Shown here piece after piece: positions 12,351-64,000 of a stretch of 64,000 nt of DNA. The notes beneath the pieces were generated by a model that was not told the origin of the DNA, searched no databases, and saw only the letters and a program-made list of their open reading frames with translations. The first letter of the stretch is position 1; the number at the start of each line of letters is the position of its first letter. Source of the DNA: Mobula hypostoma (taxonomy: Eukaryota); the NCBI RefSeq assembly GCF_963921235.1, contig NC_086097.1, forward strand, positions 166,534,001 to 166,598,000, given 5' to 3'. The position numbers and the translations under genes were made by a program.

Positions 12351-12554
12351 AAAACCAACATAAGTATTGAATCTAATAACTGTTTAAACACATTATAACA
12401 AATACTATCTTTCCCAGATGATGTCTGAGCAGTGCTATTAATAGCCCTTTAAAGTTCAGATAATGTAAATTCAACAGCCTTGCAGGAACTGGAATATTTT
12501 TTTTCTCAGCAATCTGAGGATTGCTTGTCAAAAAAGCTGTTTCTCTATAAGTTA

Positions 12555-13275: not shown

Positions 13276-13702
13276 AAGATTTCTCTTCTTTACTTAAATT
13301 GGCCAAATTATGTACACTGACATGTTTTGCTAATAATGCTGCTTTTTCAGTCAGTAACTGCTAACTTCTCCCCACCATATAAAAGCATCACGCTTTCTAA
13401 CCCCTGCCCCCATTTTCTATATCGATACCCTAAACATCCCCATCTGCATCTCTTTCCCAATGCGATCACAATACATTTTCTTTGCCCTTCTACTTTGATT
13501 ATAGTTTGAGCTCTTTCATATTATATGAAAGATGAATAGGAGTAACACTGCTTAACTTCTCTAAAAGCTTTATTCCACTCCTTCAGATCGCTTTTACATT
13601 CGTCCATCTACCAGAGATCAGCTTTCTTTTTATTATCTCTCAATGTTCTGAGGATTGATTCTTTAGTTATGGAGTAAACCTCCAACAACACACTGCACTG
13701 AC

Positions 13703-13764
13703 CGCAACCCCAGCGCACTTGTCTGCGTCTGCGCGGATACCGGATGAAGGAGGCAATGTGTCAT
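13703..13764 (-). CDS. Putative first coding exon of unidentified divergent gene (MTHCLLHPVSAQTQTSALGL[R])
   Basis: ATG at 13764 in the CpG island, donor CG|GTCAGT at 13702. The phase-2 end fits the 4312-4446 exon. Kozak context is weak, so this could be a 5'UTR exon. Confidence 0.4.
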
Positions 13765-13791
13765 CGAAGAATCCGCCGAAAACTTTTTGCG

Positions 13792-13868
13792 CGCTTGCGC
13801 GGTAGATGGACTACCGGCAGATGTACGCTTGCGCGGTAGATGGATTACTGGCAGATGTACGCTTGCGC
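13792..13868. repeat. 34-bp tandem repeat (about 2.3 copies) in the promoter
   Basis: cgcttgcgcggtagatggactaccggcagatgta at 13792-13825, again at 13826-13859 (2 mismatches), then a partial third copy. Confidence 0.9.
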
Positions 13869-14086
13869 GATTTGCTGGGACTCGCAGTGCAGTTGCTTTG
13901 CGCTTGCGTACTCCTGCGTCGGTCTGTCGTTAATAATTCACACGTCGTTGCGTCAAACAACAAACACTGGGTGGTTGAGTGAAGGACAGGCAGTCAGGTT
14001 TATTCTGGTTGGTAGGACGAGTTATCTGGTTGTTTTGTCCACATACCGTTTTATTTTTTAAGCGGTCCATCTAGGAGAAAGACAAG

Positions 14087-14139
14087 ATGGCTCAAAAGAT
14101 AAACGAGGCGCTGGAACACATAGCGGCCGCCGAGAAATG
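14087..14139 (+). CDS. NAPG: NAPG exon 1 (MAQKINEALEHIAAAEK)
   Basis: AAGATGG start, donor TG|GTAAGC. Confidence 0.96.
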
Positions 14140-23500: not shown

Positions 23501-26500
23501 GAAAGAATGTGTGTATATAAATAACGGATGGGGTACGAGGGGGAGGTGGGGCATTAGTGGAAGTTAGAGAAGTCAATGTTCATGCCATCAGGTTGGAGGC
23601 TACCCAGACGGAATATAAGGTGTTGTTCCTCCAACCTGAGTGTGGGTTCATCTTTACATTAGAGGAGGCCGTGGATAGACATATCAGAATGGGAATGGGA
23701 TGTGGAATTAAAATGTGTGGCCACTGAGAGATTCTGCTTTCTCTGGCGGACAGAGCGTAGGTGTTCAGCAAAACGATCTACTGTCTCACATATCTCTCAT
23801 CTTGCAGAGGAATTGGTGACTGATAACTTAAAGATACAATAATAAAGTCATGAAGCAGATCCCATTACCTGCATTTGGCCCATGTCTCTCGGACCACCTT
23901 CTCATAGATCTTGATTTGCCTCAGAATCATTTTCAGACTTGTGATCATTATTAAAACTCACAATATACATTTCAGGGCGCCAGTTAAAATTTAGATTTGT
24001 AATATACTGTTAGAATACTTGTGAAGTGCTATAAATTAAAAGGGTTTATAAGATAATGAAAAAAATTGAACTGATGAACTCAAATGAACACCTGTAATGT
24101 CTTTTGTTATCAATACTTTGTCTTCCTTAACTGTCTGTTCACTGTAGTTTCTTTCACGCTGCAAAGTAAGTAAATTTCACTTATTTTCATTGTATCTTGG
24201 AATTGTGACTACTTTCTTATATTTAAATTTTAAATTACATGGCAAAGTTGGAGTACTTGTACTTTCTAGCACATTCCAAATGATTTCAAGTTAAACTTAG
24301 AGGCGTTGGAAGATTATGGAAAGAGGGCAGAAAAATGGGGTTGAGAGGGAAAAAGGATCAGCCATGATGAAATGGTGGAGCAGACTCAATAGGCCGAATG
24401 GCCCAATTATGCTCCTATGTTTTATGCTCTTACGGTGTTCTACTGCATCCATTTACTTTACAGGTGTTAGAATTTTCTTGTTTGGGAGATAATGTTAAGG
24501 TTTGCTGTAATCCTGTCCTGTCTTGTCCATACTGCACCAACCACTGCCGCTGGGCTATAATCGTGCAGGAGCAATGTGTGGTTAAGTGCCTTGCTCAAGG
24601 ACACAACACGCTACCTCGGCTGAGGCTCGAGCTCGCGACCTTCAGATCACTAGTCCCAACGCCTTAACCACTTGGCCATGCGCCACATCTAGTAGATAGT
24701 AGACTTGAAGCCACTGTGTGTACCACTGATGCAAGGACTGAATGTTTAAGGTGGTGAAAACAACTGCTTTGTTTGGAGCAGCATTCATTGTGGGACATGG
24801 AGAATATTTTGTTAAATTTCTAATTACTGTCTTGCAGGTGATATCGTATCACCACAGAATACCTAGTTTCTGACTGCTATTGTAACCTCTTCAGTGGTGC
24901 TAGAAATTTTGTGAACCCTGTAGAATATTCTACATTTCTGCATAAATATGACCTAAAATGTAATCAGATCAGACCCAAGTCCTAAAACTAGAATCCAATT
25001 AAATAACTAATATAAAACATTATACTTGTAAATTTATTTACTGAGAAAAATGACTCAATATTACATGTATTTGTTGGAAAATGTTTGTGAACCTTTGAGT
25101 AACTGGTGTGACCCCTCTCCCCCCCCGCCCCCCGTACGGCAATAACTTCCACCAAACGTTTCCGGTAACTGTTGATCAGTCCTGCACATTGGCTTGGAGA
25201 AAGTTTAGGCCATTCCTCCTTACAAAACTGTTTCAACTCTGGGATGTTGGTGGGCTTCCTTGCATGAACTGCTTGCTTCAGGTCTTTCCACAACATTTTT
25301 ATAGGATTAAGGTCAGGACTTTGACCTTTTCTCAGACACGAATTTTCTTCTTTTTAAACCATTCTGTTGTTGATTTTCTCTTGTCTTTTGGATCATTGTC
25401 TTGTTGCATTATCCAACTTCTATTGAACTTCAGGTGACAGACTGCTACCCTGACATTCTCCTGTAAATTGTCTTGATACAATATCGAATTCATTGTTCCC
25501 TCAACGATTGTAAACTGTCCAGGCCCTGAGGCAGCAAAGCAGCCCCAAACCATGATGCTCCTTCCACCATGCTTCACAGTCAAGATGAGGTTTTGGTGTT
25601 GATGTGCAGTGCTAAAAAGTTCAACATTTTTCTCATCTGTCCACAGCACATTGTCCCAGAAACATTGTAGAACATCCAGGTGGTCTTTGGTAAACTTGAG
25701 ATGTCCAGCAACGTTTTTTTTTGGAGAGCAGTGGTTTTCCTCTGTGGTGTCCTTCCATGAACACCATTCTTGTTCAGTGTCTTTCTTGTAGTGGACATAT
25801 GAACAGAGACATTAGCAAATTCTAGAAATCTCTGCAGGTCTGTTCATGTGATATTTGCGGGATGCCCACTCCTAGGGAGAGTAGCAACAGTACTGAGTTT
25901 CCTCCATTTGAGACAATTTCTGATGAACACAGGTCTTTAGAAGTGCTTATGTAGCCTTTTCTAGCTTGATGCATCTCTACAATTCTTCTAAGGTCCTCTG
26001 AAAGTTGTTTTGATTGAGGCGTGGTGAACATAAACGGATATTTCTTGAGAAGAGCAGGCTCTGTCAGTAACCTGACTTTGCCTGTCTTTTTAATAGGGCG
26101 GGGCATCTCTACAGCCCACACCTCCAATCTTATCTCATTGATTGGCACACCTGACTCCACATTGCTTTTATAGAAGGTATTACTCCAGAGGTTCACCTAC
26201 TTTTTCCCAACAAATACATGTAACATTGGATAATTTTTCTCAAATAAGTGAAAAAGTATAATTATTTGTGGGTATTTATTTAAGTGGGTTCTCTTTATCT
26301 AGTTTTAGGTCTTGTCTGAAGATCTGATCACATTTTAGGTGATATTTATGCAGAAATAGAGAGGGTTCACAGACTTTCTAATTCCACTGTATATTTGGGT
26401 GAATGGCCTAGTTAGGTTTCAGATTGATGCTGAATACCTCCTAGACTCTCTGTTAATGCTGTGGGATTTGATTTTGGTGACCATTGATTGCCAAAGTGAG

Positions 26501-29500: not shown

Positions 29501-32500
29501 ATGTTATCTGAAAACTTTGAAATTTATGCCACATAATCAAATCAAAGTAACTGTTAATTTTTATTTTGCAATCCAATGACTATGTAGGCTTGTGTTCACT
29601 CCATCCCACAGTTTTCTAGTTAAAGAAGATAATATAGTTCTCTCAGAGTACGAGCAGGGGGCAGGAGGTGGTGGTAAGTTGACAAATCAATAATTAGCAC
29701 AAGAACTGAATAGGGAATTAACATTCAACACACACAAAAAATGCTGGTGAACGCGGCAGGCTAGGCAGCATCTATAGGAAGAGGAACAGTCGACGTTTTG
29801 GGCCGGGACCCTTTGTCAGGACTAACTGAAAGAAGAGATAGTAACAGATTTGAAAGTAGGAGGGGGAGATCCGAAATGATAGAAGACAGGAGGGGAGGGG
29901 TGGATCTAAGAGCTGGAAGGTTGATTGGCAAAAGGGATACCAGACTGTAGAAGGGAGAGGATCATGGGACATGGAAGCCTGGGGAGAGAGAGAAAGGGGG
30001 AAGGGAGCCCGGAGAGTGGAGAGCAGGCAAGGGGTTAGAGTGAGAGGGACAGAGGGAGAAAAGAGAGAGAAGAAAAGGGGGGGGGAAGAATAAAAAACAT
30101 ATTAAATAAATAAATAAGGGATGGGGTGTGAAGGGGAGGAGGGGCATTAACGGAAGTTAGAGAAGTCAATATTCATGCCATCAGGTTGGAGGCTACCCAG
30201 ACGTAATATAAGGTGTTGTACCTTCAACCTGAGTATGGCTTCATCTTGACAGTAGAGGAGGCCGTGGATTGACATATCAGAATGGGAATGGGACATAGAA
30301 TATGTGGCCACTGGGAGATCCTGCTTTCTCTGGCGGACAGAGTGTAGGTGTTCAGGAAAGCGGTCTCCCAGTCTGCATCGGGTCTCGCCAATATATAGAA
30401 GGCTGCAGCGGGAGCACCTGACGCAGTATATCACCCCAGCCGACTCACAGGTGAAGTGTCACCTCCCTTGGAAGGACTGTCTGGGGCCCTGAATGGTGGT
30501 GAGGGAGGAAGTGTAAGGGCATGTGTAGCACTTGTTCCGCTTACAAGGAGAAGTGCTGGGAGGGAGATTGGTGGGAAGGGATGGGGGGGACGAATGGACA
30601 AGGGAGTCGCGTAGGAAGCGATCCCTGCAGAAAGCAGAGAGAGTGGGGGAGGGAAAGATGTGCGTAGTGGTGGGATCTTGTTGGAGGTGGAGAATTATAT
30701 GTTGGATCCGGAGGCTGGTGGGGTGGTGGGTAAGGACAAGGGGAACCCTATTCCTAGTGGGGTGGCGGGAGGATGGGGTGAGAGCAGATACACGTGAAAT
30801 GGGAGAGATGCATTTTAGAGAAGAGTTGATGGTGAAGGAAGGGAAGCCTCTTTTAAAAAGGAGGACATCTCCCTCGTCCTGGAATGAAAAGCCTCATCCT
30901 GAGAGCAGATGCGGCAGAGACGGAGGAATTGCGAGAAGGGGATGGCATTTTTGCAAGAGACAGGGTGGGAAGAAGAATAGTCCAGCTAGCTGTGAGAGTC
31001 CATAGGCTTATAGTAGACATCAGTAGATTAGCTGTCTCCAGAGATAGAGACAGAAAGATCAAGAAAGGGGAGGGAGGTGTCGGAAATGGACCAGGTAAAC
31101 TTGAGAGCAGGGTGAAAGGCTAAAGTTGACTGGAAAGGGACACTCGCGGGAAGGACGGCAGAGCAGCAGTCACTGGAATTTATGCGAAAAGTGAGGGAGG
31201 TGCAAGACAGGTATATTCCAAAAAAGAAGAAATTTTCAAATGGAAAACGGATGCAAACGTAGCTGACAAGAGAAGTCAAAGCCAAAGTTTTAAAGCAAAG
31301 GAAAGAGCATACAAGGAAGCAAAAATTAGTGGGAAGACAGAGGATTGGGAAGCTTTTAAAAGCTTACAAAAGGAAACTAAGAAGGTCATTAAGAGAGAAA
31401 AGATGAACTATGAAAGGAAGCTAGCAAATAATATCAAAGAGGATACTAAAAGCTTTTTCAAGTACATAAAGAGTAAAAGACAAGTGGGAGTAGATATAGG
31501 ACTGATAGAAAATGATGCTGGAGAAACTGTAATGGGAGATGAGATGGTGGAGGAACTGAACGAGTATTTTGCATCAGTCTTCACTGAGGAAGACATCAGC
31601 AGTATACCGGACGCTCAAGGGTGGCAGGGAAGAGAAGTGTGCACAGTCACAATTACAACAGAGAAAGTACTCAGGAAGCTGAATAGTCTTATGGTAGTTA
31701 AAACTCCTGGACCAGATGGAATGCACCCTCGTGTTCTGAAGGAAGTAGCTGTGGAGATTGCGGAGGCATTAGCGATGATCTTTCAAAAGTCAATAGATTC
31801 TGGCATGGTTCCGGAGGACTGGAAGATTGCAAGTGTCACTCCGCTATTTAAGAAGGGGGCAAGGAAGCAAAAAGGAAATTATAGACCTGTTAGCTTGACA
31901 TCGGTGGTTGGGAAGTTGTTGGAGTCAATTGTCAAGGATGAGGTTACGGAGTACCTGGAGGCATATGACAAGATAGGCAGAACTCAGCATGGTTTCCTTA
32001 AAGGAAATTCCTGCCTGACAAACCTATTACAATTTTTTGAGGAAATTATAAGTAGGCTAGACAAGGGAGATGCAAGATTTTGTATATTTGGATTTTTAGA
32101 AGGCCTTTGACAAGGTGCCACACGAGGCTGCTTAACAAGATGCGAGCCCATGGAATTACGGGAAAGTGACATACATACGTGGATAGGGCTTTGGTTGATT
32201 GGCAGGAAGCAGAGAGTGGGAATAAAGGGATCCTATTCTGGTTGGCTGCCGGTTACCAGTGGTGTTCCACAGGAGTCCGTGTTGGGGCTGCTTTTTTTTA
32301 CGTTGTACATCAGCGATTTGGATTATGGAATAGATGGCTTTGTGGCTAAGTTTGCTGATGATATGAAGATAGGTGGAGGGGCTGGTAGTGCTGAGGAAAT
32401 AGTTTGCAGAAAGACTTGGATAGGTTGGAAGCTGGGCAAAGAAGTGGCAAATGAAATACAGTGTTGGAAAGTGTATGGTTATGCACTTTGGCAGAAGAAA

Positions 32501-38500: not shown

Positions 38501-41500
38501 GCCCTTCAAACACAAAAGTTAGAGATGAGCAAGAGCCCAGACACTGACATTTACAGTCTTCTGCACAAAAGAAACATCCCCTCAATCTTAAGTAATTGAG
38601 CTCTTAATCCTGGAACACCATTGCCTAGTTCTAAATCAGCCTCATGGCATCTACTTTGTGGAACCCTTTCAGAAACATAAGATAATTTCTCTGTTCTCTA
38701 CTGAACTCCAAAGCATGCAGGGCAAAGTTTTTCAAAGTTTGGAGTGGGCAAAGGTGAGAAATTAATGCAGTGTTGAAAACAGTGGTGAGGTGTAGTGATT
38801 CATATTCTTTAACAGTAAAAGAAAAATCCATGTGGGAAAATGGAGCCCCTGTGCTCACTAGTAATTTCAGATGCACGGCAAATGATCATGCGAGGCATCT
38901 TCAGGGTTCTATGTCACAACAGTCATTTTCATGTAAATATTTTAATGTAGTTATGCACTTTTGAACATTTTAAGGCTATTGTTAAAATTGTTTGTCTTTA
39001 TGTTTAAGGCTTGATGAAGCAGCAGGATCTCTTCAGAAGGAAAAAAACATCTATAAGGAAATTGAGAATTACCCAACATGTTTTAAGGTAATCAAATAAT
39101 TTGTAATATTTCAGTTATTTTCTTCTATTCTTGAAAATTTTTATTAAGTTATGTAATCATGTTTTAAAAGGCATCATGACAAGCACATGAACAGGCAGGG
39201 CTTGGAGCGACATTATTCTATATTCTAGAACGGGTCAGCAACCTTTTTGCCTCGGTGGGCTGGATCGTGTGTTAATGAGCGGACAGCGGGCCAGATAATT
39301 GCCATAAAAACTTGAAATACGGGAATTATCCATTTTAATACATCTAGTTATATTTTGCCTCAAATTAATGAGTTACGCATGCTAGAAAATCATTTGTACT
39401 TAACCAAGGATGCCAATTAGTAATCAAAGAACTCAGTTTAGTTGCAATTTATTTCAATCTAGGCATCTTTTTAATCTATTAAAAGGACACAAAGAATCTT
39501 TAAACATAAAATGTATGAACATGATGCATTGAATGGTGGTAAATTAAGTATAATACAAAAGGAAATTTTATTGCAAACAGTCGATAAATCAACGTGAAAC
39601 TTGATGCTGTTTGTTGCTTGAAAGCTTCTCAATATTGGGTGTCAGGGTTGTTGATGCTAAGAGCAAGACATTATCCCACTGGACATCAGTCAATCTCGTT
39701 CTCAAATGGTTCTTGGTGTGCTTCATTTTTGAAAATAATTGCCCACACAGCTAAGTGCTGCCAAACAATGATGCCGTCTTTTTTGCATGGTCCACTAAGT
39801 TAGAATACTTCGCACTTGGATGAACATATTTTCTATAGATATCAAGCACTGACACATCTTCAGAATGAAATTTCAATCTCAATATGTTGTCACATTGCAT
39901 CTCAATCAATTCCATTTGAAAAATTTCTGATGCAGTGTCCACTTTCACATCAAATGGAGTAGCAAACAGCTTGAACTCATTTGCATGCAAGCAAAAATTA
40001 GGAAAGCGAGATGAAAACTCTTTTTGCAATTCTTGTACCATATTCACAAAAATGCCTGGATCTTGTGATTTACTTTTTTGTAAAGTGGGAAAATGTACAC
40101 AATTTCCTTTTTGAAGCTGGTACTCCCACCGTTGCACCTTTCTTTTAAAGGCCACAATATGACCATACATCTCGTGTATCAGTTGATTTTTTTCCTTGAA
40201 GTTGTAAATTCAAGTTATTTAAATGAGATGTAATGTCCACAAGAAATGCCAAGGTTGCAAGCCAATCAGGATCATGAAAATGTGAAGCATCCTCATTTTT
40301 GCTTTCAAGGAATATTGCCACCTCGTCATGCAATGCAAATACTCTTTCCATCGTTGACCCTCAGCTAAGCCAGCGTACATTGGAGAAATAGGCCAGGTCT
40401 CCCAGCTCACTCAATGAAGAAGTAATCGAGTGTCCAAGTGTCTTGGAAATTTCGGCACTCAGTGTCTACTTTCCTGCGTTTTGCATTCATTGCCATTGGA
40501 ATTTTTTTCTTCAATTTTATTTCGAAACGCGAGTTAATCAACAAGTATCGTAGCATATGTAAATATCTGGATATTTAGCGTGGATTTCTTGTTAAAACAC
40601 AGTGATGCTGTTTCTGTTTACAAATTTGAATGACCCCATCTGAAAACTTGCTCGTGCACGGAGAGTATCTAATAAATATTAATAAGGTAGTCTGCCTTCC
40701 CATCATTCGTAAATATAACAGTGTTTGGTTTGGAACAAAACGGAACCTGGGGCCAGTGCAACAAGATGCCATGGATGTCCATCAGTGTGGTCGCGTGAAA
40801 CACTCAGAATAAGGGGAAATCGCTCGCACGCCGGATAAGCATAGTATCCCAATATTTGCTCGTGGGCCGGATTTGGCCCGCAGGCCGTAGGTTGCCTACC
40901 CCTGTTCTAGAAATTTGATCTATAATTCTACTTGAATTAGCATCTATCCTGCTATGCCTTTCCTATTCAAGTACCAATTTTTGAACATTGTAATTGTACT
41001 GCCTCTACTACTTCTTTCAACAGCTCATTCCAGATGAACAATGTGTGGAAAAGCTCATCCCTCAGATCTCTTTTACATTTCTCCCCTCTCACCTTACACC
41101 CACTAGTTCTAGTCTCCTGATACTTGAGGGACAAATGCTCTGCCTATCTTATCTATATCTCTGCTTTTAAAATTGTAAAACCTCAATAAGCTTACACCTC
41201 AACTGCCTACATTCCAGTAACTGTAAACCCATCCTATCCCGTCTCTCCTTTCCAGTCAACATCCAGGTGAATCTCTATTGCCACCTCATCCTTCCCGTAG
41301 TGTGATGCCCAGAACTATGCACAATATTTTAAATACAGCCTTAACCAATGTTTTGCACAACTGCATCCTGGAGTCCCAACTGCTATACTCATTGCCCTGC
41401 TATACGAAGGCAAACATACCAAATGTTGTCTTCATTACCCCATATTGCCACTTTCAGTGATCTGAAGACTTGTACCACCATCAAGGTCTCTGTATATAAA

Positions 41501-44500
41501 TGTTCCTAACTTCCATGCCAGAATTTGTGGTAGAATATGTTCTATCAGAATTTGATTTCTCAAACTGCATAACCTTCTACAATTGTGGATTAATTTCCAC
41601 CTGAATTCCTCTGATTTCCACCCCCCACCTCCAAAAATATATTTTTACCTTGTAATACAGTGATCAGCTGACTATTCAGAGTTATCTTGTCGTAGAGAGT
41701 TCCTAAAATTTACTATCTTCTGCATGAAAGAAACTTCTGTCAATCCTACCTGACTGACCCTTTAATCCTGGAGCACTGCTATTTACTTCCAGGCCTCATG
41801 GCTTCTACTTTTGTTAAGCCTCTTCAGAATCCTGATTAGTTCTCAGTTCTCTAAACTTCAATGCATGCAAGGCAAGCAACTTCAAACATAGGCCTCGAAT
41901 ATATTGGGGTTACCCCTATTCAGGAATATTACTAACTTCATTTTTAAAGATGCATACAAACATAAGAAAGAGGAGACAGCATTCTTTGACTGAATTTCTC
42001 TTGAAGAATAGAGGCATAACGTATTGTACAAAAATAGTGAGAGATACAAAATTTATTATAGGTTTGAGAATCAATATTTATAATAAGAAAAAAGGAAAGA
42101 AAAGTAATGAAGGGCAGAACAGATCCTCCCCAGATGATGGCAGGATTCCATTCCCCTGAACTGTTCATAACCTGAACAGTTTGCAGGTTGGAAGTATGGT
42201 CCATCAAATTTGGTTATAGACTGTACATAAGTTGGGGTTTGTACCTTGAGATCTGTTGATAACAAACTGCTTGGATAACCTTTGGATGTTAGTTGGAACA
42301 CGGTGGCCCAAATGGTTTCCTGATTCTCCATATAGCAGTGAGTCTTCATGATGGTAGTTTACAAATGAGTCAAACATGAATGTACAAACCCCATTTCCAG
42401 AAAAGTTGGGATATTTTCCAGAATGCAATAAAAACAAAAATTTGTGATATGTTAATTCATGTGAACCTTTACTTAACTGACAAAAGTACAAAGAAAAGAT
42501 TTTCAGTAGTTTTACTGACCAACCTAATAGTATTTTGTAAACATACACAAATTTAGAATTTGATGGCTGCAACACACTCAACAAAAGTTGGGACAGAGGC
42601 ATGTTTACCATTGTGTTACATCACCTTTCCTTTTAATAACATTTTTTAATGGTTTTGGAACTGAGGATACTAATTGTAGTAGATTTGCAATTGGAAATTT
42701 TGTCCATTCTTGCTTGATATAAGACTTCAGCTGCTCAACAGTTCGTGGTCTCTGTTGTCTGATTCTCCTCTTCATGATGCGCCATACATTTTCAATAGGA
42801 GATGGGTCTGGACTGGCAGCAGGCCAGTCAAGCACATTCACTCTGTGTCTACAAAGCCATGCTGTTGTAGCCCGTGCAGAATGTGGTCTGGCATTGTCCT
42901 GCTGAAATAAGCATGGACGTCCCGGGAAGAGACGTTGCATTGATGGCGACATATGTCTCTTTAAAATTGTAATATATGCCTCAGAGTCAATGGTACCTTC
43001 ACATACATACAACTCACCCATGCCGTGGGCACTGATGCACCCCATACCATCACAGATGCTGGCTTTTGCACCTTTCGCTGATAACAATCTGGATGGTCGT
43101 TTTCATCTTTGGCACGGAGAACTCGATGCCCGTTTCTTCCGAAAACTAGCTGAAATGTGGGTTCATCTGACCACAGTACATGGTTCCACAGTCTTTCGGT
43201 CCATCTGAGATGAGCTTGGGCCCAGAGAACTCGCCGGCATAGAGTTGATGTATGGCTTCCTCCTTGCGTAATACAGTTTCAAGTTGCATTTCTGGATGCA
43301 GCGATGGACTGTGTTGAGTGACAATGGTTTTCCGAAGTACTCCCGAGCCCAGGTGCCTATAATTGTCACAGAAGCATGACGGTTTCTTAGGCAGTGCCGC
43401 CTGAGGGCTCGAAGGTCACGCGCATTCAACAGTGGTTTCCGACCTTGCCCTTTACGCACTGAGATGTCTCTGAATTCTCTGAATCTTTTCACAATATTAT
43501 GTACTGTAGATGTTGAAAGACCTAAATTCTTTGCAATCTTGCGTTGAGAAATGTTCCTTTTGAACTGACTAACAATTCTCTCTCGAATTTTGGCACAAAG
43601 GGGTGAGCCACGACCCATCCTTGCTTGCAAAGACTGAGCCTTTGATGGACGCTACTTTTATACTCAGTCATGATACCTCACCTGCTACCAATTAGCCTGC
43701 TTAATGTGGAGTCTTCCAAACCGGTGTTACTTGAATATTCTGTGCACTTTTCAATCTTGTTTTAACTCTGTCCCAACTTTTGTTGAGTGTCTTGCAGCCA
43801 TCAAATTCTAAATTTGTGTATGTTTACAAAATACAATTAAGTTGGTCAGTAAAACTACTGAAAATCTTTTCTTTGTACTTTCGTCAGTTAAATAAAGGTT
43901 CACATGAATTAACATATCACAGATTTTTGTTTTTATTGCATTTTGGAAAATATCCTAACTTTTCTGGAAATGGGGTTTGTATTTGTCTACTGTAAATCAA
44001 CTAAACACGGGTTTCCCCCCCCATCCGAAGGTAGAGCATTCCTGTGAAATGGTTTGTAAGCGGAAATGTCGTAAAGTGAAGAAGCAATTACCATTTATTT
44101 ATATGGGAAAATTTTGTGAGCGTTTGCAGACCCAAAAATAACCTACCAAATCATGCCAAATAACACATAGAACCTAAAATTACAGTAACATATAGTAAAA
44201 GCAGGAATGATATGATAAATACACAGCCTATATAAAGTAGAAATACTTTTCCACAATCATTACTGAACTGTTCTCTGTCGCGAAAATCTCACACAAGCGC
44301 CATCGGCAGAAAATCTCTCACAAGCGCTGTTGGCAAGAACACTCTGCCCAGTAACCTTTAAGCTATGAAGCTGCCAAATCATTACCAAATAACATATAAA
44401 AATACATAGCCTATATAAAGTAGAAATAATGTGTGTACAGTGTAGTATCACTTATGGGAATTGGGAAGATAGCTTGCCGAGCACACTGATGATGGTGTGT

Positions 44501-47500
44501 TGGACTGAGTCGTCACAGGTTGGGTGGTGCAGTGGCCCCCACCCTCCAGGCCATCGAGCGATACATTGCCGCGAAGCATGCAGGAATGCAGCGGTAGCCG
44601 GGAGGTATACAGCACATCTTTAAGAAAAAAGCTGAAACAAACAAGCTAATTAATTAGGTGCCGCCGACACGTAATTGTCGGCGCAGATCAGTGCCGATAT
44701 CCAATTGCGTCATCTCTGATCTGGGCTGACAATTGTGTGTCAGCGGCGCCTAATTAATTAGCATGTTTATTTCGGCTTTTTTCTTAAAGATGTGCTGTGT
44801 GCCTCCCGGCTACCGTTGCATTCTCCGTGAATTGGTATCTGTCCGTGGCCTGGGGGTTGGGGTGGTGGGACACTGGGGTGTCATCTCGTCGTCTGTTTCC
44901 ATTAGACCAGACAGCTCATCTTCTCCTATGACTGCCCGCCTCGATGTCGAAGGTCGAGGTTCGTCGTCTGCTGTGGCTGACGTGGAAGGCTTGCTTGACT
45001 GCTGAACCTCGCTCATTTTTCTATCACACAGTTCTTTGTAAGGACTGAAACCATCCTGCAAATATCTCCTAAACCGACGTACCCTTTCAAAATTAAAGTC
45101 GTACTTTATCATTACTCATTCGGTTTCGATTGTTATCCTTTTTTCTTCCAATTGCATCAGCTCTTCATCTGTCAGTTCTTGGTGATGGGATGCCAAAACC
45201 TCTTCAACGTCATGTTTGTCAGCTTCCACAAGCCAAACTTATGTTGTCCTTACTTTGTTCACCACGATCAAAACACTTAATTATGTCTAGTTGTACTGTA
45301 AGTGTAACACCCTTACGAGCTCTTTCAGGCTTTTCCGATACCATAGAACTCATCTTGCAAATGGCTGCTTACAGGCACGTGTTAAAGCAAAGCAGTTCTG
45401 AATCCGGGGGAGAGTGGCTGCTCGGGGTGCACTGCCTTTTATCTCGCGCTGATTTTTTATCGCACGCTGAATTTTTATTCATAACAGTGAAAACACCTTC
45501 TGAAAGTGAAAATAGGGTACTAATGTAGGTCTTCCGTAACAGTGAGTTTTCGTAAAGCGAACGTTCGAAAAGCAGGGGACACCTGTATGAGAATTTATTT
45601 GTGGTGGTAATTTAAGAAAGGTTGGCGGCCAGTCAGACATCCAGAGTAGCCCTATGTAATGTTTTTTTTCCCCCCTCTTTGACTTCTGTTTAGGTACTCG
45701 TAAATTGTAAACATTGAACTTGGCCCAATGCATGGTGGAGTTCAGCAATGGTTAAATGAATGAGCCACTTTACCAATTTCTCATTTAAACATTGGCCTCA
45801 AAATATTACTGTGTTGATTTGTTGCACCACCAAGTTACATTCATAGTCATAGTCATACTTTATTGATCCCAAGGAATTGGTTTTCGTTACAGTTGCACCA
45901 TAAATAATTAAATAGTAATAAAACCATAAATAATTAAATAGTAATAAAACCATAAATAATTAAATAGTAATATGTAAATTATGCCAGGAAAGAAGTCCAG
46001 GACCAGCCTATTGACTCAGGGTGTCTGACCCTCCAAGGGAGGAGTTGTAAAGTTTGATGGCCACAGGCAGGAATGACTCATTCCACCAAGATGCAACACT
46101 GAGCGTCATAGGATCTTGGTGGAATGAGTCTCTGGCTGAATGTACTCCTGTGCCCAACCAGTTCATTATGTAATGGATGGGAGACATTGTCCAAAATGGC
46201 ATGCAACTTGGACAGCATCCTCTTTTCAGACACCACCGTGAGAGAATCCAGTTCCATCCCCACAACATCACTGGCCTTACAAATGAGTTTGTTGATTCTG
46301 TTGGTGTCTGCTACCCTCAGCCTGCTGCCCCAGCACACAACAGCAAACATGATAGCACTGGCCACCACAGACTCGTAGAACATCCTCAGCATCGTCTGAC
46401 AGATGTTAAAGGACCTGAGTCTCCTCAGGAAATAGAGATGGTTCTGACCCTTCTTGTAGACAGCCTCAGTGTTCTTTGACCAGTCCAGTTCATTGCCAAT
46501 TCCTATCCCCAGGTATTTGTAGTCCTCCACCATGTCCACACTGACCCCCTGGATGGAAACAGGGGTCACCGTAGTTGAAAGTTACATGATGTGACAATTT
46601 TGGAGAGATGATGTGACAATTTTGGACAGATAAGAGATTAAAAATTTTATAATTCATTCAACAGATGTCTAATTATCCTAATTAGCTTTTTGATCTGAGT
46701 AGTCTGCTAAGCCATTTTGGAGGCAGCTATGAATTAAATACTCGTAACTCATAACAAGCGTGGCAGACCGGATTGGATAAGTACAACATACTTCCTGAAG
46801 GACATGGACAAATCATTTGTGTTTTTGCAACGCTATTGTATTTTCATGGTTACCAATACAGATGCTAGTTTTTTATTCCAGAACTTATTTAACTAACTAC
46901 ATTTAAATTCCTCATACAGTATGCTGTGTCATGATGTGAATTTATCCAGCCTTTTGAATGCTAGTCAGTAACATAACTATTATCTTAATCATGGATCTGT
47001 AGAAAGATTTTTGCTCTTGATGTGTTGGTATTTAACTGTATCAACAGTTTTCAAGAGTATGTTTCTGAAATATTCACCATATTACTTGTTTGCTTTAGAA
47101 AACAATAGCACAAGTGTTGGTTCATCTACATAGGAATGACTACGTAGCTGCAGACAAATGTGTTCGAGAAAGTTATAGGTAAGCATTAAAAATGTCCTTA
47201 TTATTTGCTGATAAGACTATATAATGCTTTTACCTGAATAAAACTGACAGCTAGAATGCAGGTGTGTTAACTCATTGGGTTTGTATACTCCCCCTTCTGG
47301 TCATACCTGACAGATTAATAGTTTTGTTAATTGGTTATAAGATTTGTGTGTGAAATGGTGAAACAATATAGAACCAATTTCATTTGGGGCAGCACAGTAG
47401 CATAGGGGTGTGTGTGTGCTCGCACACACATTTTCTTAGTGCATCCAACAGAGTAAAAATCTTAAACAACAGGAATTCTGCAGATGCTGGAAATTCAAGC

Positions 47501-50500
47501 AACACACATAAAAGTTGCTGGTGAACGCAGCAGGGCAGGCAGTATCTCTAGGAAGAGGTGCAGTCGATGTTTCAGGCCGAGACCCTTCGTCAGGACTAAC
47601 TGAAGAAAGAGTAAAAATCTTGCTGTTGCGTCTCTGTCATAATGTACAAGCGATCAACGGGGGAAATGAGCCCAAACACTAAAATTGTAAGCATTACTGT
47701 TTTTTACACTGTATGTACAGTCAGATACACGATTAGATCAATATGTTCTCATTGTGACCTCGTGAGTTTCCTTTGGGTGCTCCAGGTTCCTCCCGCAGTC
47801 CAAAGACCTACTGAGCTGCCAGTGTGCAGGTATGTGGCTATGGCTACCAGTATACGCACACCTGCTACCCTTTTGCCACAGGACTTGGGTTAGTTTGGGA
47901 TTGTAAGAATGGGTGACAAGAGTGACCTGCGCAAAGACTTAGTTTAGGAGAAAGAGTTGCGCAGTGTTGGCCTCACTCACTCGTTTGAGACCATCTGTAT
48001 ACAGTGGCAAGACAGAGTCACAACAGCTGAAGATGAAGTCAGCACAGCACCTCGCTGGGTCAGCCTTCCTGACTGTTGAGCTGAACTAGCGGTTACCTCC
48101 GTGCAGTCTGCTGGGTGCAGCCTTCGCTAAACTGGGTAGGCAAGCCCAAGTTCGCCGAGCATTTAATGCCCATTGTTTACCCTCACCTGTTTTAGGCCTT
48201 TTGTCAAAGGGGCTTACCAAGGTGTGGCCACAGTTGCTAGAAAACAGCAGTTTTGAGCCACAGGTGAGAGCTGAATGTAATGGTACAAGCTGGGGACAAT
48301 GGTAGGCAAGTGATTGCCAAGGGGGCATGAGATGCCTGCCTCATCAGAGGTGCTACACCTCCCTGACACCCCATACACCCCAATCAAAATAGTAATGGTA
48401 TATTCTAAAATTATGAAAGCCTGAATGTCCAATGCTGTTTTGTGGATAGGAAGGACATATATTTTTAGAAGCATAATTGGGAGTTTAAAAAACAAACTTA
48501 AAATATTCTGGCAATCTATGTGGTTAGCAGGCAGGAAATGTGGATCAGATGGACAAAGTTATGTCCTTATCTCAATTTTGAAGCCAATAAACTATCCAAG
48601 AAGATGATGAAACTTGATGTACAATTTCTTCCTCCCCAAGTTTAGTTTGATGCATAAGTAACGAATGATTTCTGATCTAATCTTTCTTGTTAACAGTATA
48701 CCTGGATTTAATGGTAGTGAGGACTGCATTGCCTTGGAGCAACTACTGGAAGGATTTGATCAGCAAGACCAGGATCAGGTTTTTGCTATCTGTAATTCAG
48801 CACTCTTCAAGTACATGGATAATGATGTAAGTTTGATTCCATTTATTGAGTACTAATATGAGAAACCAAGGAATAGATAAATACTTCATTGATCCCAAAG
48901 GAAATTATAGTATCACAGTAGCATTACAAGTTCGCATATATACAATATTAGAACAGAAGTAAGGAGAATAAGTAAAAGTAAGTTATCTTAAACAGTCCAA
49001 CACGAGGGGGTCATCACTTCCCTGGCCATAGGTTGACTCATTATAGACCCTTATGGCTGAGGGTAAGAATGAACTCGTATAGTGCTCCTCTGTTCAGCCA
49101 AAGTGGTATGCAGAGGACGAGAAACCTTGTAGAATTGCCAGGATTTTCCGTAAGTTCCTTTGTTGTACCACAGCCTCCAGCGTGTTCAGTTTGACTCTTA
49201 CAACAGAGCCAACCTTTCTAATCAGTTAATTGTGCCTATTGGCATCAGCCATGTTGATGACATTCCCCAAGCATACCACTGCATAGAAGATTGTACTGGC
49301 AACCACAGACTGGTAGAACATGTGAAGGAGAGGGCTGCATTTTCTAAAGGACCTCAGTCTCCTTGGGAAGTAGAGGTGACTCTGGCCCTTCTTGTACACT
49401 GCCTCTATGTTGGTGCTCCACTCAAGTCTGTCATCCAGGTGCACCCCCAGGTACTTGTAGGATCTCACCACATCCATGTCCTCACCATTAGTGGTAACAG
49501 GGAGCAGTGCAGGCTTTGTTTTCCTAAAGTCCATAACTATCTCCCTTGTCTTACTGATGTTGAGCTGCAGATGATTCAGCATGCACCATTTGACAAAGTC
49601 CTCTACCGGGTCCCCATATTCATTCTACTATTCTCCCTTTATCTATATACTACTAAAACTCTCATGCCCTGTTTGTGACCTCCAACTAGCGGCACTATTT
49701 TTGGCTAAATCGACTTAAAATGCGCTAACTTACAGAATGCAGGCAAAGTTCAGGGTTATATATTCATACAAAATTGCTCACTCGTTAAAATCAACAGCCC
49801 CGCTTTCACCTGAGAGCCGATGTCAGCCATGATAGAAACCGCGATGCAACACCACGATGCATGCATACAGCCAGCCTCAGAAGTGACTCATGATGCTCAC
49901 AGCAGCAACACCAATCGGAGCAAAAGGGCAGGGCAGCTCTATTTCGAGCGGTCTCATTCTGCTAATCACCATCAGCATGTGCAGGATTGGGACAGATCAA
50001 ACTGGGACCCATCAATAAGAGATAATTAAATCTTATTGTAATGACGTACTTCGAGACACCCATCAAACCCTTTACTGCAGTCAAGGGACATTGGTAACTA
50101 TATCATGTCCATTTAGGAGAGCGCCAACCACAACAACAAGAATAGTCAGCATCCTGGAGGCTTTGGTGTTACTGCTTCGTATCTTCTATCCAGCATTAGG
50201 GTAAAAAAAATGGTCAGCCTAATTATTGCGCGTGGAAAGAGAAGGGGGACATTATGGTCAAGAGATGATGCCAAACGTCGTCGGGAAGCGGCAAGGAGAG
50301 GGAGAGAACAAGAATCAGATGAAGTCAGGGCCGTACGACTCCAGGATCAAAGAGTTAGGACAACAAAGATGAGAGAAGAAGAGGCATGCAAGTCTCCAAA
50401 ATGACAACAACTGGCATAGAAGGAGGAGAGATGAAGAGACAAAGGAGCTGAGAAATGCATGTCTCCAGGATCAGAGGCAAACAGCAGAAGAGATAAAGAG

Positions 50501-53500: not shown

Positions 53501-53827
53501 AGCAGGTAGCACAGTGAAATCATTAGTGAAAGAATGGTTAAAATTACATCAGTATTGTTCCTATTCCCAGTGAATGAATAATTATTAGAAAACAATGTGC
53601 AAATTCATGGGAAAATATCATTCTGTTAGTTATTTGAACATCTTATTCTTGAGACTATTTAATCTAATCTATTTTCCTAGTATGCCAAACTCTCTCTGAG
53701 TTTGAGAGTTCCTGGAGGAGGAACAAAAAAGAAGTCACCTGCGCAACAAAAAAATGGAGAGTCTGCACAAAAGCAACCTGATGGTTTTGAAGAAGAGGAT
53801 GATGACTACTCCTCTGGATTGTGCTAA
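14087..53827 (+). CDS. NAPG: NAPG / gamma-SNAP (gamma-soluble NSF attachment protein), 12 coding exons, 312 aa
   Basis: Exons of 53+68+85+18+31+110+67+71+79+80+130+147 = 939 nt join in frame with GT-AG boundaries. Translation MAQKINEALEHIAAAEKCLKTSFLKWKPDYDGAASEYGKAA...LFKYMDNDYAKLSLSLRVPGGG...DDDYSSGLC* matches recalled vertebrate gamma-SNAP along its length. Confidence 0.98.
16545..17005 (+). mobile_element. CR1-type LINE 3' fragment
   Basis: ORF 16636..16911 ESRTRGHCLRIEG...FFSQRVVNLWNSLPQ. Confidence 0.85.
17121..17188 (+). CDS. NAPG: NAPG exon 2 (LKTSFLKWKPDYDGAASEYGKA)
   Basis: ttccAG acceptor, CAG|GTAAGG donor. Confidence 0.97.
17490..18680 (-). mobile_element. Two adjacent Rex/Babar-type LINE 3' fragments
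   Basis: ORF 17730..18110 FYHCTIESILTYCIPVWY...FELLPSGRRY...RLKNSFF and ORF 18295..18513 IETILTCYITAQY.NCSVTDRKALQR. Confidence 0.8.
19753..20667 (-). mobile_element. Solo LTR (probably Gypsy-type) containing (TG)n and (CCCCTCT)n microsatellites
   Basis: TGTTACA...ATGACA termini, minus-strand AATAAA near 19837-19842, CpG-retaining body. Flanked by the 15-bp direct repeat tttaagatgacattg. Confidence 0.7.
20474..20579. repeat. (TG)n dinucleotide followed by (CCCCTCT)n heptamer microsatellite
   Basis: Directly visible; explains low-complexity ORFs such as 20313..20678. Confidence 0.95.
21160..21378. mobile_element. Fold-back Penelope pseudo-LTR remnant with a degenerate hammerhead
   Basis: acacacaaaatgctgaaggaactcagcagg... 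pairs with ...ctgcagagttcctcctgcattttgtgtgt. Central cttgatgaaaggttttggcccaaaacgtc. Confidence 0.75.
21813..21897 (+). CDS. NAPG: NAPG exon 3 (IAFKNAKQYDQAKDAFLKEAESHQNNR)
   Basis: ctacAG acceptor; ends at U12-type donor GTATCCTTTT. Confidence 0.96.
21898..24147 (+). other. NAPG: U12-type (minor spliceosome) GT-AG intron, NAPG intron 3
   Basis: 5' splice site GTATCCTTTT at 21898. Branch site TTCCTTAAC at 24123-24131, ending 14 nt before the terminal AG (24146-24147). Confidence 0.95.
23135..23780 (-). mobile_element. Penelope-like 3' fragment (GIY-YIG C-terminus and pseudo-LTR) inside the U12 intron
   Basis: Closely similar to 7632-8250; carries gtgacgaagggtctcggcccgaaacatc. Confidence 0.88.
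24148..24165 (+). CDS. NAPG: NAPG exon 4, 18-nt micro-exon (FFHAAK)
   Basis: AG|T TTC TTT CAC GCT GCA AA|GTAAGT supplies the ALFHAAK-equivalent segment missing between exons 3 and 5. Confidence 0.95.
24563..24686 (-). mobile_element. tRNA-derived SINE 5' part
   Basis: Minus strand gtggcgcaTGGCCAAGTGGttaaggcg...gagcTCGAGCC (A-box/B-box-like), then the gtgtccttgagcaaggcacttaacc core. Confidence 0.75.
24892..26389 (-). mobile_element. Tc1-like DNA transposon, degenerate
   Basis: About 200-bp TIRs CAGTGGTGCTAGAAA...GTGAACCCT. Transposase fragments LWTDE, TVKHGGRSIMVWGCFAASGPG, MQQDNDPK, LWKDLKQAVHARKPTNIPELKQFCKEEW. Confidence 0.92.
26570..27145 (-). mobile_element. CR1-type LINE 3' fragment
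   Basis: RGLEYKSKDILLNLYKALI on the minus strand plus CR1 tail. Confidence 0.8.
27540..28465 (+). mobile_element. Rex/Babar-type LINE fragment split by a short CR1 tail (27698-27880, aactc duplicated)
   Basis: KTKEIIVDFR...FKFLGIHISDDLTWS, FYCCTIESILTNCISVWYGNC; ends aataaaattg(aatct)n. Confidence 0.85.
29726..33820 (-). mobile_element. Penelope-like element (RT, GIY-YIG and pseudo-LTR) interrupted by a CR1 LINE
   Basis: RT motifs FPMDVQSLDTSIPHQEGL and MGTRMGPSYACLF in 33275-33820. GIY-YIG IYCVRCSRCSLLYIGET in ORF 30147..30434. The sequence resumes exactly across the CR1 insertion. Confidence 0.92.
31119..33274 (+). mobile_element. CR1-type LINE ORF2 (RT) fragment of about 2.15 kb nested in Penelope
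   Basis: ORF 31403..32110 KTPGPDGMHPRVLKE...PEDWKIASVTPLFKKG...NYRPVSLTSVVGKLLE...QHGFLKGNSCLTNL; also SGVPQESVLG and KFADD. gaaag is duplicated at the junctions. Confidence 0.95.
34550..34580 (+). CDS. NAPG: NAPG exon 5 (AFEQAGMMLK)
   Basis: ctccacAG acceptor, AAG|GTTGGT donor. Confidence 0.95.
35575..35684 (+). CDS. NAPG: NAPG exon 6 (EMQKLPEAVQLIEKASMMFVENGTPDTAAMALDRAG)
   Basis: atatAG acceptor, AA|GTAAGA donor. Confidence 0.97.
37129..37195 (+). CDS. NAPG: NAPG exon 7 (LIENVNLEKAVDLYQQAASVFE)
   Basis: tttcAG acceptor, GAG|GTAGGT donor. Confidence 0.97.
38229..38299 (+). CDS. NAPG: NAPG exon 8 (NEDRLRQSAELLGKVSRLLVRAR)
   Basis: tttatAG acceptor, AG|GTAAGT donor. Confidence 0.97.
39009..39087 (+). 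CDS. NAPG: NAPG exon 9 (LDEAAGSLQKEKNIYKEIENYPTCFK)
   Basis: Less common AAG acceptor (tgtttaAG), AAG|GTAATC donor. Confidence 0.97.
39231..40904 (-). mobile_element. hAT (Charlie/Buster/SPIN-like) deletion derivative
   Basis: Perfect 8-bp TSD ttctagaa at 39223-39230 and 40905-40912. TIR CAGGGGTAGGCAACC on the minus strand. Transposase C-terminus DWLATLAFLVDITSHLNNLNLQLQG, MELIEMQCD, SLFGST. Confidence 0.92.
42385..43979 (-). mobile_element. Near full-length Tc1 (DD34E) transposon with a frameshifted transposase
   Basis: TA|CAAACCCCATTTCCAGAAAAGTTGGGA...|TA with about 210-bp TIRs. HTH region in ORF 43163..43630. Catalytic QQDNARPH...SPIE with 34 residues between D and E in ORF 42605..43087. 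Confidence 0.96.
44008..45585 (-). mobile_element. pogo/Tigger deletion derivative of the same family as 5663-6916, with an internal palindrome
   Basis: Shares termini and 5' region with 5663-6916 (cttccgtaacagtgag...ggggacacctg|ta). Keeps a different, C-terminal-like coding piece (ORF 44810..45112). Confidence 0.88.
45841..46578 (-). mobile_element. Young Rex/Babar LINE 3' fragment with a 9-bp TSD
   Basis: ORF 46078..46569 VEDYKYLG...KKGQNHLYFLRRLRSF, (actatg)n tail, TSD aagttacat at 45832-45840 and 46579-46587. A closely similar copy lies at 57318-57775. Confidence 0.9.
47099..47178 (+). CDS. NAPG: NAPG exon 10 (KTIAQVLVHLHRNDYVAADKCVRESY)
   Basis: ctttAG acceptor, AG|GTAAGC donor. Confidence 0.97.
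47464..47607 (-). mobile_element. 144-bp Penelope pseudo-LTR insertion with a 14-bp TSD
   Basis: TSD agagtaaaaatctt at 47450-47463 and 47608-47621; body matches the Penelope terminus. Confidence 0.9.
47561..47598 (-). ncRNA. Minimal type-I hammerhead ribozyme motif (Penelope-associated), antisense to NAPG
   Basis: uaguc CUGACGA agggucucggccu GAAA ca UC gacug. Core boxes intact; helix-III palindrome ACGU changed to ACAU. Confidence 0.6.
48697..48826 (+). CDS. NAPG: NAPG exon 11 (IPGFNGSEDCIALEQLLEGFDQQDQDQVFAICNSALFKYMDND)
   Basis: taacAG acceptor, GAT|GTAAGT donor; visible in ORF 48665..48856. Confidence 0.97.
48880..52160 (-). mobile_element. Rex/Babar-type LINE (RT region) interrupted by a Helitron
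   Basis: MKTLEWLVLAHL...LDPLQF, VRIIFFDFTSAFNTIQP, STGAPQGTVL...CHLQKFSGESAIVG|CIKG, LNISKTREIVMDFRK. Confidence 0.88.
49642..50756 (+). mobile_element. Non-autonomous Helitron (1115 bp)
   Basis: A|TCTATATACTACTAAAA 5' end. Subterminal hairpin caatggg-tca-ccccgttg then CTAG|T 3' end, no TSD. Removing it restores the host RT reading IVGCIKG. Carries charged R/E-rich repeats (RLQDQR) like RepHel N-termini. Confidence 0.9.
53681..53827 (+). CDS. NAPG: NAPG exon 12, coding part (YAKLSLSLRVPGGGTKKK...DYSSGLC*)
   Basis: ttcctAG acceptor, TAA stop at 53825-53827, acidic tail ending GLC as in gamma-SNAP. Confidence 0.97.
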   Translation, partial: YAKLSLSLRVPGGGTKKKSPAQQKNGESAQKQPDGFEEEDDDYSSGLC

Positions 53828-62336: not shown

Positions 62337-63009
62337 CACAGGACAAATTAACAATGACTAATTAACCTAGTAACCAGCATGCCTTTTGACTGTGGGAGGA
62401 ATCCGGTTTATTCGGAGGTAACCCATGTGATCACGGGGAGAATGTCCACATTCCTTACAAACCGTGTGGAATTGTACTCAGAGCTGTGATAGTGTCACTA
62501 ACCACAACGCTGCGGTGGCACTTCAAACCGGTCTCAGCCCGAAACGTCGACTGTACCTCTTCCGAGAGATGCTGCCTGGCCTGCTGCGTTCACCAGCAAC
62601 TTTGATGTGTGTTCCTTGCGCTGGTGAATCGTGTGTTCGGGACCAGGCTACTGGCATCTCCAAATCTCATCACCAGTTCAAAATTTATTCACCAAGCTAA
62701 TTTCACATCCGCAACATTGTCCTGTTTTCCATATCAACCGAGAATTTGCAGTAGAAATGTCATTTTCATCTTTGCATCATCATTAGAGAATAAATCACAA
62801 ATTAACTTCTACCAATTGTCGACAAGCAAGTTAACACAAAAAAAAACAAATGTTGGAAATCTTAAATCAAAATAACAGAGCGCACATTCGCGTTAAAGAG
62901 CCCCGACACACGCAAAATGCAGGAGGAAGTCAGCAAGTCAGGCAGCATCTATTAAAATAAAAAAACAGTCGGCGATTCGGTCCGAGACCCTTCTTCAGGA
63001 CTCAATGCC

Positions 63010-63370
63010 CGAGAGCGTCTCGGGGTCCGGGTACAGTACAGTACAATTCCGGCTCTAAGAGAATGCGCATGCACGGAAAGGAAACCGCCGACAAAAAGAA
63101 AGCGCGCAACCGCATCGACGGACCCGGCGGTGCCGCTAGGAGGGTGCGCATGCGCATTCCCGAGCGACACTCAGCGGCGATGAGGGTCTGCGGAAGGAGT
63201 GGTGGATTGGTCGTGGTGGAGCGCTTGGTGTTTGCCGCCGACGCCGGGGACTCCGACCCATGCTCCAGGGCGGTGTTGTTCGCAGGACAGCTGCCAAATC
63301 TGCACAAACTTGCCTGGAACCAAGTGAAGGGGAAGCTGGAGCCCCGGGTGACCCAGGAGGTAGCGAGAAA
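63010..63370 (+). promoter_or_regulatory. CpG-island promoter of the NPEPL1-like gene
   Basis: CpG-dense. Perfect NRF1 palindrome TGCGCATGCGCA at 63145-63156 and a near match at 63064. Confidence 0.8.
63180..63359 (+). CDS. NPEPL1: First coding exon of an NPEPL1-like probable aminopeptidase (M17 family); the rest of the gene lies beyond the window
   Basis: MRVCGRSGGLVVVERLVFAADAGDSDPCSRAVLFAGQLPNLHKLAWNQVKGKLEPRVTQE aligns without gaps to recalled human NPEPL1 LQFQASAGDSDPQSRPLLLLGQLHHLHRVPWSHVRGKLQPRVTEE (about 27/45 identities by eye). gcgATG start, phase-0 donor GAG|GTAGCG. Orthologue versus paralogue is unresolved. Confidence 0.85.
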
Positions 63371-64000
63371 GCAAGAGGTCCAAGATGGGGCCAGATGTTC
63401 AGGCTATTCAGCCCTTCTGGCTCTCTGTTGACCCGGCACCTATACTTAGGTGGCAGTGGCCCAGGGCTAAAGAGAGTGGAGTTGCTTGAAGCATGTTCTG
63501 ATGCTCAGTTTGCACCTTGATTTTTAAATTATTACTCTTCATGCTTCCCCCTGCCTCCCACTTATATATCTGTAGTCCCTTGCTCTTAACGTCCTACTCA
63601 TCTCTGAATTTTACTGCTGCACCATAGGTGACTGCACCTTTGATGGGAAAACGTAAACTCTAAAACTCTTACGTTAAAAGCATTGTGCCTGATCTTGTGT
63701 CTACCTACTTTGTGTTTTGGTGCCAATGTTTTCGTTCTCACTATCACTAGTAATGACAGTGTTTATTGTCCCTCATCTGTGGAGGCACATTATTGTGTTT
63801 AGAGTTAGTCCAGGTAAAGGATTGCACATTTCCTTCCCTGAAGGGCCTTACTGCTGCTGAAACCAGTTACAATGAAATATTTAATTGCACTTGTACTACT
63901 GGCATCCATTCCTTCTAGAACTGACTTTATAGACACAGGTAGATTCATTGCTAATTATTTATTTCTTTGAACAGAAGAACCTGGTTTGACCATCACTTGT

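Follow-up and report, generated by a model that had tools for sequence, protein, structure and literature searches.

Human NPEPL1 lies at 20q13 in the order RAB22A-VAPB-APCDD1L-STX16-NPEPL1-GNAS, and the paralogous block at 18p11 runs RAB31-VAPA-APCDD1-NAPG-PIEZO2-GNAL, without an NPEPL1-like gene. In a 64,000-nucleotide stretch of the Mobula hypostoma genome (the window; G000:C1:166534001-166598000), the first-pass annotation placed an NPEPL1-like gene next to NAPG and proposed that it was the sister copy from the early vertebrate genome doublings. The locus thus raises the question of whether this is a complete gene, how old it is, and whether its product can still act as an aminopeptidase. 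Taken as a whole, the evidence favours (with a probability of roughly 70 per cent) an intact 2R ohnologue located between NAPG and PIEZO2 and encoding a predicted weakened or non-catalytic M17 protein.

A complete second NPEPL1 gene between NAPG and PIEZO2

Coding exon 1 of the second NPEPL1 gene (63180..63359 of the window, plus strand) comprises 60 codons, with an ATG start, an open frame and a GT donor. Its peptide is 95% identical to a Hypanus protein named "probable aminopeptidase NPEPL1" (E 8.7e-29), and 57% identical to exon 1 of the usual NPEPL1 gene on contig C2 (E 2.3e-10). The splice donor of intron 1, GTAGCG (63360..63365, plus strand), is in phase 0 as in intron 1 of the C2 copy, and the intron is 3,360 bp long. 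The frame of exon 1 is open further 5', from 62961, with additional Met codons upstream; the Met at 63180 is also the start in stingray orthologue models. A Pfam scan with exon 1 alone gave no match, the exon stopping within the N-terminal domain. A CpG scan of the window revealed an island spanning the promoter and exon 1 (62851..63400, unstranded). The 500 bp from 62851 have a GC content of 0.57, a CpG observed/expected ratio of 1.07 and 43 CpGs, the highest among the windows scanned, compared with 0.41 and 0.33 for GC content and CpG ratio in the whole window. An exact palindromic match to what we take to be the NRF1-type consensus is located 24 bp 5' of the ATG (63145..63156, unstranded), and a site with one mismatch at 63064-63075. 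In the window this motif gave six strand-matches at three places, against 0.10 expected from shuffles that did not preserve the CpG islands.

The upstream neighbour on the same strand is NAPG. Its coding exon 1, presumably the segment at 14087..14139 (plus strand) as judged from its sequence, lies in a CpG island of its own. An internal exon (48697..48826, plus strand) matches zebrafish gamma-SNAP 2IFU (E 1.3e-13) and nothing else, and the last coding exon (53681..53827, plus strand), recognized by sequence reading, includes the stop codon at 53825-53827. From this stop to the ATG of the second NPEPL1 copy the distance is 9,352 bp, so the first-pass description of a CpG-island first exon with an NPEPL1 N-terminus about 9.3 kb past the NAPG stop was accurate. 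NAPG has matches at a single genome locus. The SNAP Pfam model gave nine matches, all on contigs C22 and C50 and none at NAPG, and NAPG was therefore identified through the PDB. The island at the NAPG promoter (13701-14200) holds a 34-bp tandem repeat (13792-13869, 2.3 copies) and GCGC-rich elements. Elsewhere in the window there are long open stretches (7929-9134, 12552-13088, 25332-25811, 31130-32110, 39751-40209, 42605-43651 and 46078-46581), which we take to resemble broken LINE, Penelope-type and DNA-transposon fragments.

The gene continues beyond the window, where exons 2-12 are located, and ends with a stop at G000:C1:166646284. It has 12 exons and 534 codons with a single terminal stop, and all 11 introns are GT-AG; disabled downstream exons were looked for, and all 12 exons proved intact. 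The usual NPEPL1 on C2 also has 12 exons, with 526 codons. Exons 2-11 have equal lengths and phases in the two copies, exon 1 of the C1 copy is longer by 10 residues, and the proteins are 70% identical. The two models equal the stored proteins P0126 and P0307, each named "probable aminopeptidase NPEPL1" from a Mobula ray. Both genes are thus annotated already, yet the database name 'NPEPL1' is common to both. A genome search with the full-length protein, which began with a stricter first look and may have missed weak extra copies, yielded 22 matches, 12 on C1 and 10 on C2, and no other locus. Two differences between the copies were observed at the nucleotide level. The donor of intron 9 is GC in the usual copy (G000:C2:226344869) and GT in the C1 copy, and the C1 and C2 copies differ in third-position GC (0.39 and 0.52), in line with origin from a large and a small chromosome, respectively.

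Splice joints were examined for exons 8-12 in contigs from four runs (three studies), which we presume to be RNA. Three predicted joints were present in all four runs and the fourth in three of them, with a near-identical joint in the remaining run; intron stretches were also covered by the run contigs. The genome search found no intronless NPEPL1 copy, and hence these joints most likely derive from spliced RNA. A processed or disabled pseudogene is ruled out by the 11 introns, all GT-AG, and the 534 open codons.

On C1 the genes are arranged in the order VAP (plus strand, 165.88 Mb), APCDD (minus, 165.95-165.99), NAPG (plus), second NPEPL1 (plus), PIEZO (minus) and a Gs-family alpha gene (plus, 167.74-168.0); the NAPG-side synteny was followed in the Mobula genome. 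The PIEZO gene ends about 4 kb past the stop of the second copy, and its last exon is identical to mouse PIEZO2 at 80 of 80 residues. The PDB matches listed for an exon of the Gs-family gene are Gs, a comparison by which GNAL and GNAS are not separable; from its position, its residues and the skate table we take the gene to be GNAL. PIEZO2 and a Gs-family alpha gene were thus found downstream, as the earlier claim had anticipated. The sole APCDD-family locus (three matches; G000:C1:165953556-165985118, minus strand) lies about 0.56 Mb upstream of NAPG. The APCDD genome search found no gene of this family near STX16 on C2, and APCDD1L may be missing in the Mobula ray.

On C2 the order is PIEZO (plus), NPEPL1 (minus), STX16 (minus), VAP (minus) and then a Gs-family alpha gene. 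The copy beside STX16 that had been looked for is the usual NPEPL1, with STX16, which has matches at a single genome locus, 15 kb and VAP about 135 kb upstream. The PIEZO gene on C2, the third of its family (G000:C2:226333264-226340334, on the strand opposite to NPEPL1), ends 2 kb past the usual NPEPL1 stop. It is nearer to PIEZO2 than to PIEZO1 and identical to neither, as expected for PIEZO3, and is likely to be that gene as judged from its sequence. A further PIEZO gene is located on C55. The GNAS-type gene (G000:C2:227907769-228120340), one exon of which equals the Gs-alpha sequence from the PDB search, lies 1.4 Mb beyond VAP on the strand opposite to NPEPL1, which suggests an inversion separating it from PIEZO3. 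VAP, NPEPL1, PIEZO and Gs-alpha form paralogous pairs on C1 and C2 whose order matches except for the displaced Gs-alpha on C2. Relative to the PIEZO gene the two NPEPL1 copies occupy the same slot in the same orientation, which is what the 20q13 block had been said to predict. In the available part of a preprint on Piezo3 (bioRxiv 10.64898/2026.05.15.725496) the blocks piezo2-napg-apcdd1 and gnas-piezo3-npepl1-apcdd1l-vapb-rab22a are described, and NPEPL1 is named there twice, as the usual copy only. Database models of STX16-NPEPL1 fusions exist in a fish and in mammals (P0064, P0113, P0120).

Age and retention of the duplicate pair

A first FastTree of 120 proteins gave two jawed-vertebrate clades. 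Both were recovered in a 45-row tree, in which they roughly follow the species tree and the vertebrates stand apart from three outgroup rows at 98/95. The second-copy clade (99/90) contains sharks, rays, coelacanth, bichir, sturgeon, bowfin, gar, Aldrovandia, Megalops and Synaphobranchus, and the usual clade (99/97) contains chimaera, sharks, rays, coelacanth, tetrapods and ray-finned fishes. When the three long invertebrate rows were omitted, a subset of 25 rows supported the clades at 99/98 and 98/96. With cartilaginous and bony fishes in each clade, the duplication is dated between the divergence from invertebrates and that of sharks and bony fishes. The C2 gene groups with tetrapod NPEPL1 and adjoins STX16, and the C1 gene does neither; the C1 gene is a paralogue, not an orthologue, of mammalian NPEPL1.

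NPEPL1 might alternatively have been duplicated or translocated within the cartilaginous fishes, or copied through RNA. Attraction of fast-evolving copies in the tree is possible in principle, but direct evidence for such an event is lacking. An AU test rejected a single clade of all cartilaginous-fish copies (p=0.0027), all 35 second-copy proteins, from those of sharks to those of eels, carry derived residues such as Phe442 and Leu396, none of the 11 introns is missing, and the gene occupies the slot predicted by the paralogous block. This explanation can practically be dismissed. Origin of the pair by genome doubling is, in our judgement, very probable, and the proposal of a sister copy from the early vertebrate doublings was borne out by two clades that predate the shark/bony-fish split.

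Which doubling produced the pair is a separate question. In the best free tree lamprey and hagfish stand beside the usual clade (90/68, unstarred), as they would if the copies went back to the first, pan-vertebrate doubling (1R). That branch is weak, however, and the tree expected under 2R, with the cyclostomes outside both clades, is 0.6 log-likelihood units worse than the best tree and is not rejected (AU p=0.34). Moreover, the available part of PMC10115646 (SI Table 3) has the two skate chromosomes as alpha and beta of one 1R copy: LER4 is 1alpha and LER21 (=GGA20) is 1beta, with Napg, Piezo2 and Gnal on Leri_4C and Vapb, Stx16 and Npepl1-3 on Leri_21C. Based on this skate chromosome assignment, carried over to the Mobula genome by shared neighbours only, the C1/C2 pair are likely 2R sisters, and a 1R origin appears improbable. 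Of the 23 listed species with both copies on chromosome-scale contigs (Atractosteus, at scaffold level, being excluded), 21 have the second copy on the longer of the two by a hand count, as would fit a pair of one large and one small chromosome.

Among the matches listed, the second copy occurs in sharks, rays, coelacanth, bichirs, sturgeons, paddlefish, bowfin, gars, tarpons and eels. At least 252 stored proteins had 58% identity or more, and by eight diagnostic sites 70 of them are nearer to the second copy: four form an outgroup cluster, and the other 66 come from these same fish groups. No tetrapod, chimaera, bonytongue or clupeocephalan teleost had a second copy among the matches listed, which suggests that the gene was apparently lost in tetrapods and most teleosts. 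Retention in cartilaginous fishes, as first claimed, thus holds for sharks and rays, but the gene is not limited to them. Its stated absence from the mammalian locus agrees with the lack of any tetrapod second copy among the matches listed, so that loss is likely there. The alternative of reciprocal loss with hidden paralogy does not apply in the Mobula genome, because both copies are present. Tarpons, eels and a halosaur (P0342, P0344, P0345, P0355, P0358-P0361) are the sole teleosts with a second copy among the matches listed. Neither a usual copy of eels or tarpons nor a second copy of chimaera was among these matches, which is not taken as absence.

Active site and rate of change of the second copy

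The second copy of Mobula has the five metal ligands (K270, D275, D293, D352 and E354), mapped by motif on what we take to be the bovine numbering, and the catalytic Lys, K282, which is unchanged in 35 of 35 second-copy proteins. The catalytic Arg, which ends the M17 signature NTDAEGRL (signature and residue roles as in the available part of PMC4468156), is replaced by Ser356. Position 356 is encoded by TCT, from which every Arg codon is two or more substitutions away, and contigs of runs X2 and X3 had no differing letter in exon 9. Ser356 is shared by all four myliobatiform proteins, together with Pro288Thr, Leu381Ser and Thr382Ala. Lacking the catalytic Arg, the protein is classed by its sequence with M17 homologues whose active site is incomplete, and not with the active peptidases. 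The first-pass suggestion of a second M17 aminopeptidase thus stands with respect to the M17 domains, the metal ligands and the Lys, but fails at the catalytic Arg.

At least one of the seven M17 active-site residues is altered in 13 of 35 second-copy proteins, compared with none of 39 usual and none of four cyclostome proteins; the other 22 second-copy proteins retain all seven. The altered proteins belong to myliobatiform rays (4), Rhinoraja (1), Heterodontus (1), gars (2), Megalops (2), Synaphobranchus (1) and Anguilla (2). Mapped on the species tree, these would represent about seven lineages; for the three known from a single genome each, errors in the gene model are possible. Two stingrays additionally lack a metal ligand (Asp293 replaced by Gly), and two or three of the seven residues are lost in gars, eels and the horn shark. 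The active-site enrichment over general relaxation is modest: the seven sites carried 14 changes (2.0 per site) and the 233 further sites that do not vary among the usual copies carried 175 (0.75 per site; permutation p=0.027), and p was 0.07 against other K/R/D/E sites only. For the Mobula copy alone no enrichment was found (1/7 sites vs 22/233, p=0.51). Fisher tests on 16 active-site positions (p 0.0006-0.004) were set aside, some of the pocket positions having been picked after the ray changes were seen.

The open frame of the ray gene could in principle be owed to slow ray evolution, the gene itself being a slowly decaying relic without function. In all 23 species with both copies, the second one evolves faster than the usual one (20 at p<0.05, the tests not being independent), Mobula and Hypanus differ at 25/534 residues in the second copy versus 6/526 in the usual one, and the gene has apparently disappeared from several large lineages. 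Such decay is difficult to reconcile with the 35 aligned proteins, which are full-length database models from sharks, rays, coelacanth and ray-finned fishes, with the 211 of the 233 other invariant sites kept in the ray, or with the CpG-island promoter, intact splice sites and spliced contigs. We consider a relic improbable.

M17 leucyl aminopeptidases are homohexamers. The second-copy protein matches the Pfam families PF00883 (303.5 bits, cut-off 25) and PF18295 (83 bits), and its predicted fold, built with 72 aligned sequences, has a pLDDT of 91.3 (35.7 without the alignment) and a TM score of 0.86 to C. elegans LAP1 (2HB6). The ray protein is predicted to fold, to bind two metals and probably to form a hexamer, with poor binding of bicarbonate and substrate and poor peptide cutting.

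A protein with this origin could also be a second, specialised aminopeptidase that is fully active but has a changed substrate pocket. In Mobula the five metal ligands and the catalytic Lys are all retained, the changes at Pro288, Leu381 and Thr382 adjoin catalytic motifs, and the second-copy proteins of two Mobula species differ at only 1 of 534 residues. In addition, loss of the Arg need not abolish activity: in the accessible parts of the two sources, such a loss is expected to cut activity 10- to 100-fold (PMC3078892), and mutation of the equivalent Arg in E. coli PepA did not lower activity (PMC10666288). On the other side, the stingrays without the Asp293 ligand, and the gars, eels and horn shark without two or three residues, point to catalysis being dispensable in the second-copy clade. 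Weakened catalysis of the Mobula protein is therefore the prediction we regard as probable, and a fully active enzyme as rather unlikely.

A course of events leading to a weakened ohnologue can be envisaged as follows. An ancestral block VAP-APCDD-(STX16, NAPG)-NPEPL1-PIEZO-Gs-alpha would have doubled, one block copy retaining STX16 and the other NAPG. The STX16-linked NPEPL1 would have kept the peptidase job, and the NAPG-linked one, redundant as a peptidase, may have stayed expressed from its housekeeping-type promoter. Fold, C-terminal basic motif and reading frame would then have been constrained, with the active site eroding separately in several lineages, and in others dispensable catalysis may have ended in the apparent loss of the gene. 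More speculatively, this unnamed ohnologue (in effect an NPEPL2) might have become a pseudo-peptidase independently in some seven fish lineages, with frame and fold kept for a non-catalytic role. Such a role could be, for example, that of a regulatory subunit in mixed NPEPL1 hexamers or of a tissue-specific structural protein. If this tentative idea were true, the lineages would offer a replicated natural series from active enzyme through pseudoenzyme to gene loss, and vertebrate NPEPL1 proteins would have a job besides peptide cleavage.

Comparison with known systems

The gene occupies a position that had been empty in the 18p11/20q13 paralogous block. For sharks, rays, coelacanth and early ray-finned fishes, the name NPEPL1 in databases covers two genes, a distinction of importance when orthologues are assigned or expression is studied. 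Repeated active-site loss in one copy alone provides a testable series from a duplicated enzyme to a pseudoenzyme or to loss. In the literature searched, with subscription journals mostly outside it, no paper was found that describes or distinguishes a second vertebrate NPEPL1. The skate annotation numbers copies as Npepl1-2 and Npepl1-3, and the 68 differentially retained ohnologues counted in that study (PMC10115646) may already include the gene. Retention in fish with loss in mammals is already familiar among ohnologues, and M17 duplicates with decayed catalysis have been described in Drosophila sperm.

The closest relative is vertebrate NPEPL1 itself, in the STX16-NPEPL1-PIEZO3-GNAS block, with which the second copy shares PF18295 and PF00883, the 12-exon layout, the basic C-terminal motif and the same slot and orientation relative to the PIEZO gene (68-72% identity to the usual copies aligned). 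Unlike the usual copy, it adjoins NAPG and PIEZO2, evolves about twice as fast and, in Mobula, lacks the catalytic Arg. In origin and patchy retention it resembles PIEZO3 and the 68 differentially retained ohnologues described in the part of PMC10115646 available. PIEZO2 and PIEZO3 are an adjacent pair in the same two blocks (10.64898/2026.05.15.725496, available part), but PIEZO3 was lost from the STX16 block and the second NPEPL1 from the NAPG block. The second NPEPL1 is the faster and more often lost copy and, by the skate table, lies on alpha, whereas the general trend in the accessible text of PMC10115646 is more loss and faster change on beta. With the Drosophila S-LAPs (PMC3078892, accessible part) it has in common that M17 duplicates lost active-site residues under constraint, cluster II being substituted at the same Arg; the S-LAPs, in contrast, are a separate M17 lineage, a gene-duplication expansion in insects, and are found in sperm. 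The nearest solved structures by sequence (E 2.6e-101) are C. elegans LAP1 (PDB 2HB6), whose fold is also the one matched above, and the trypanosomatid LAPs. Unlike the Mobula second copy, these have both the Arg and the TLTG motif intact in the three alignments listed.
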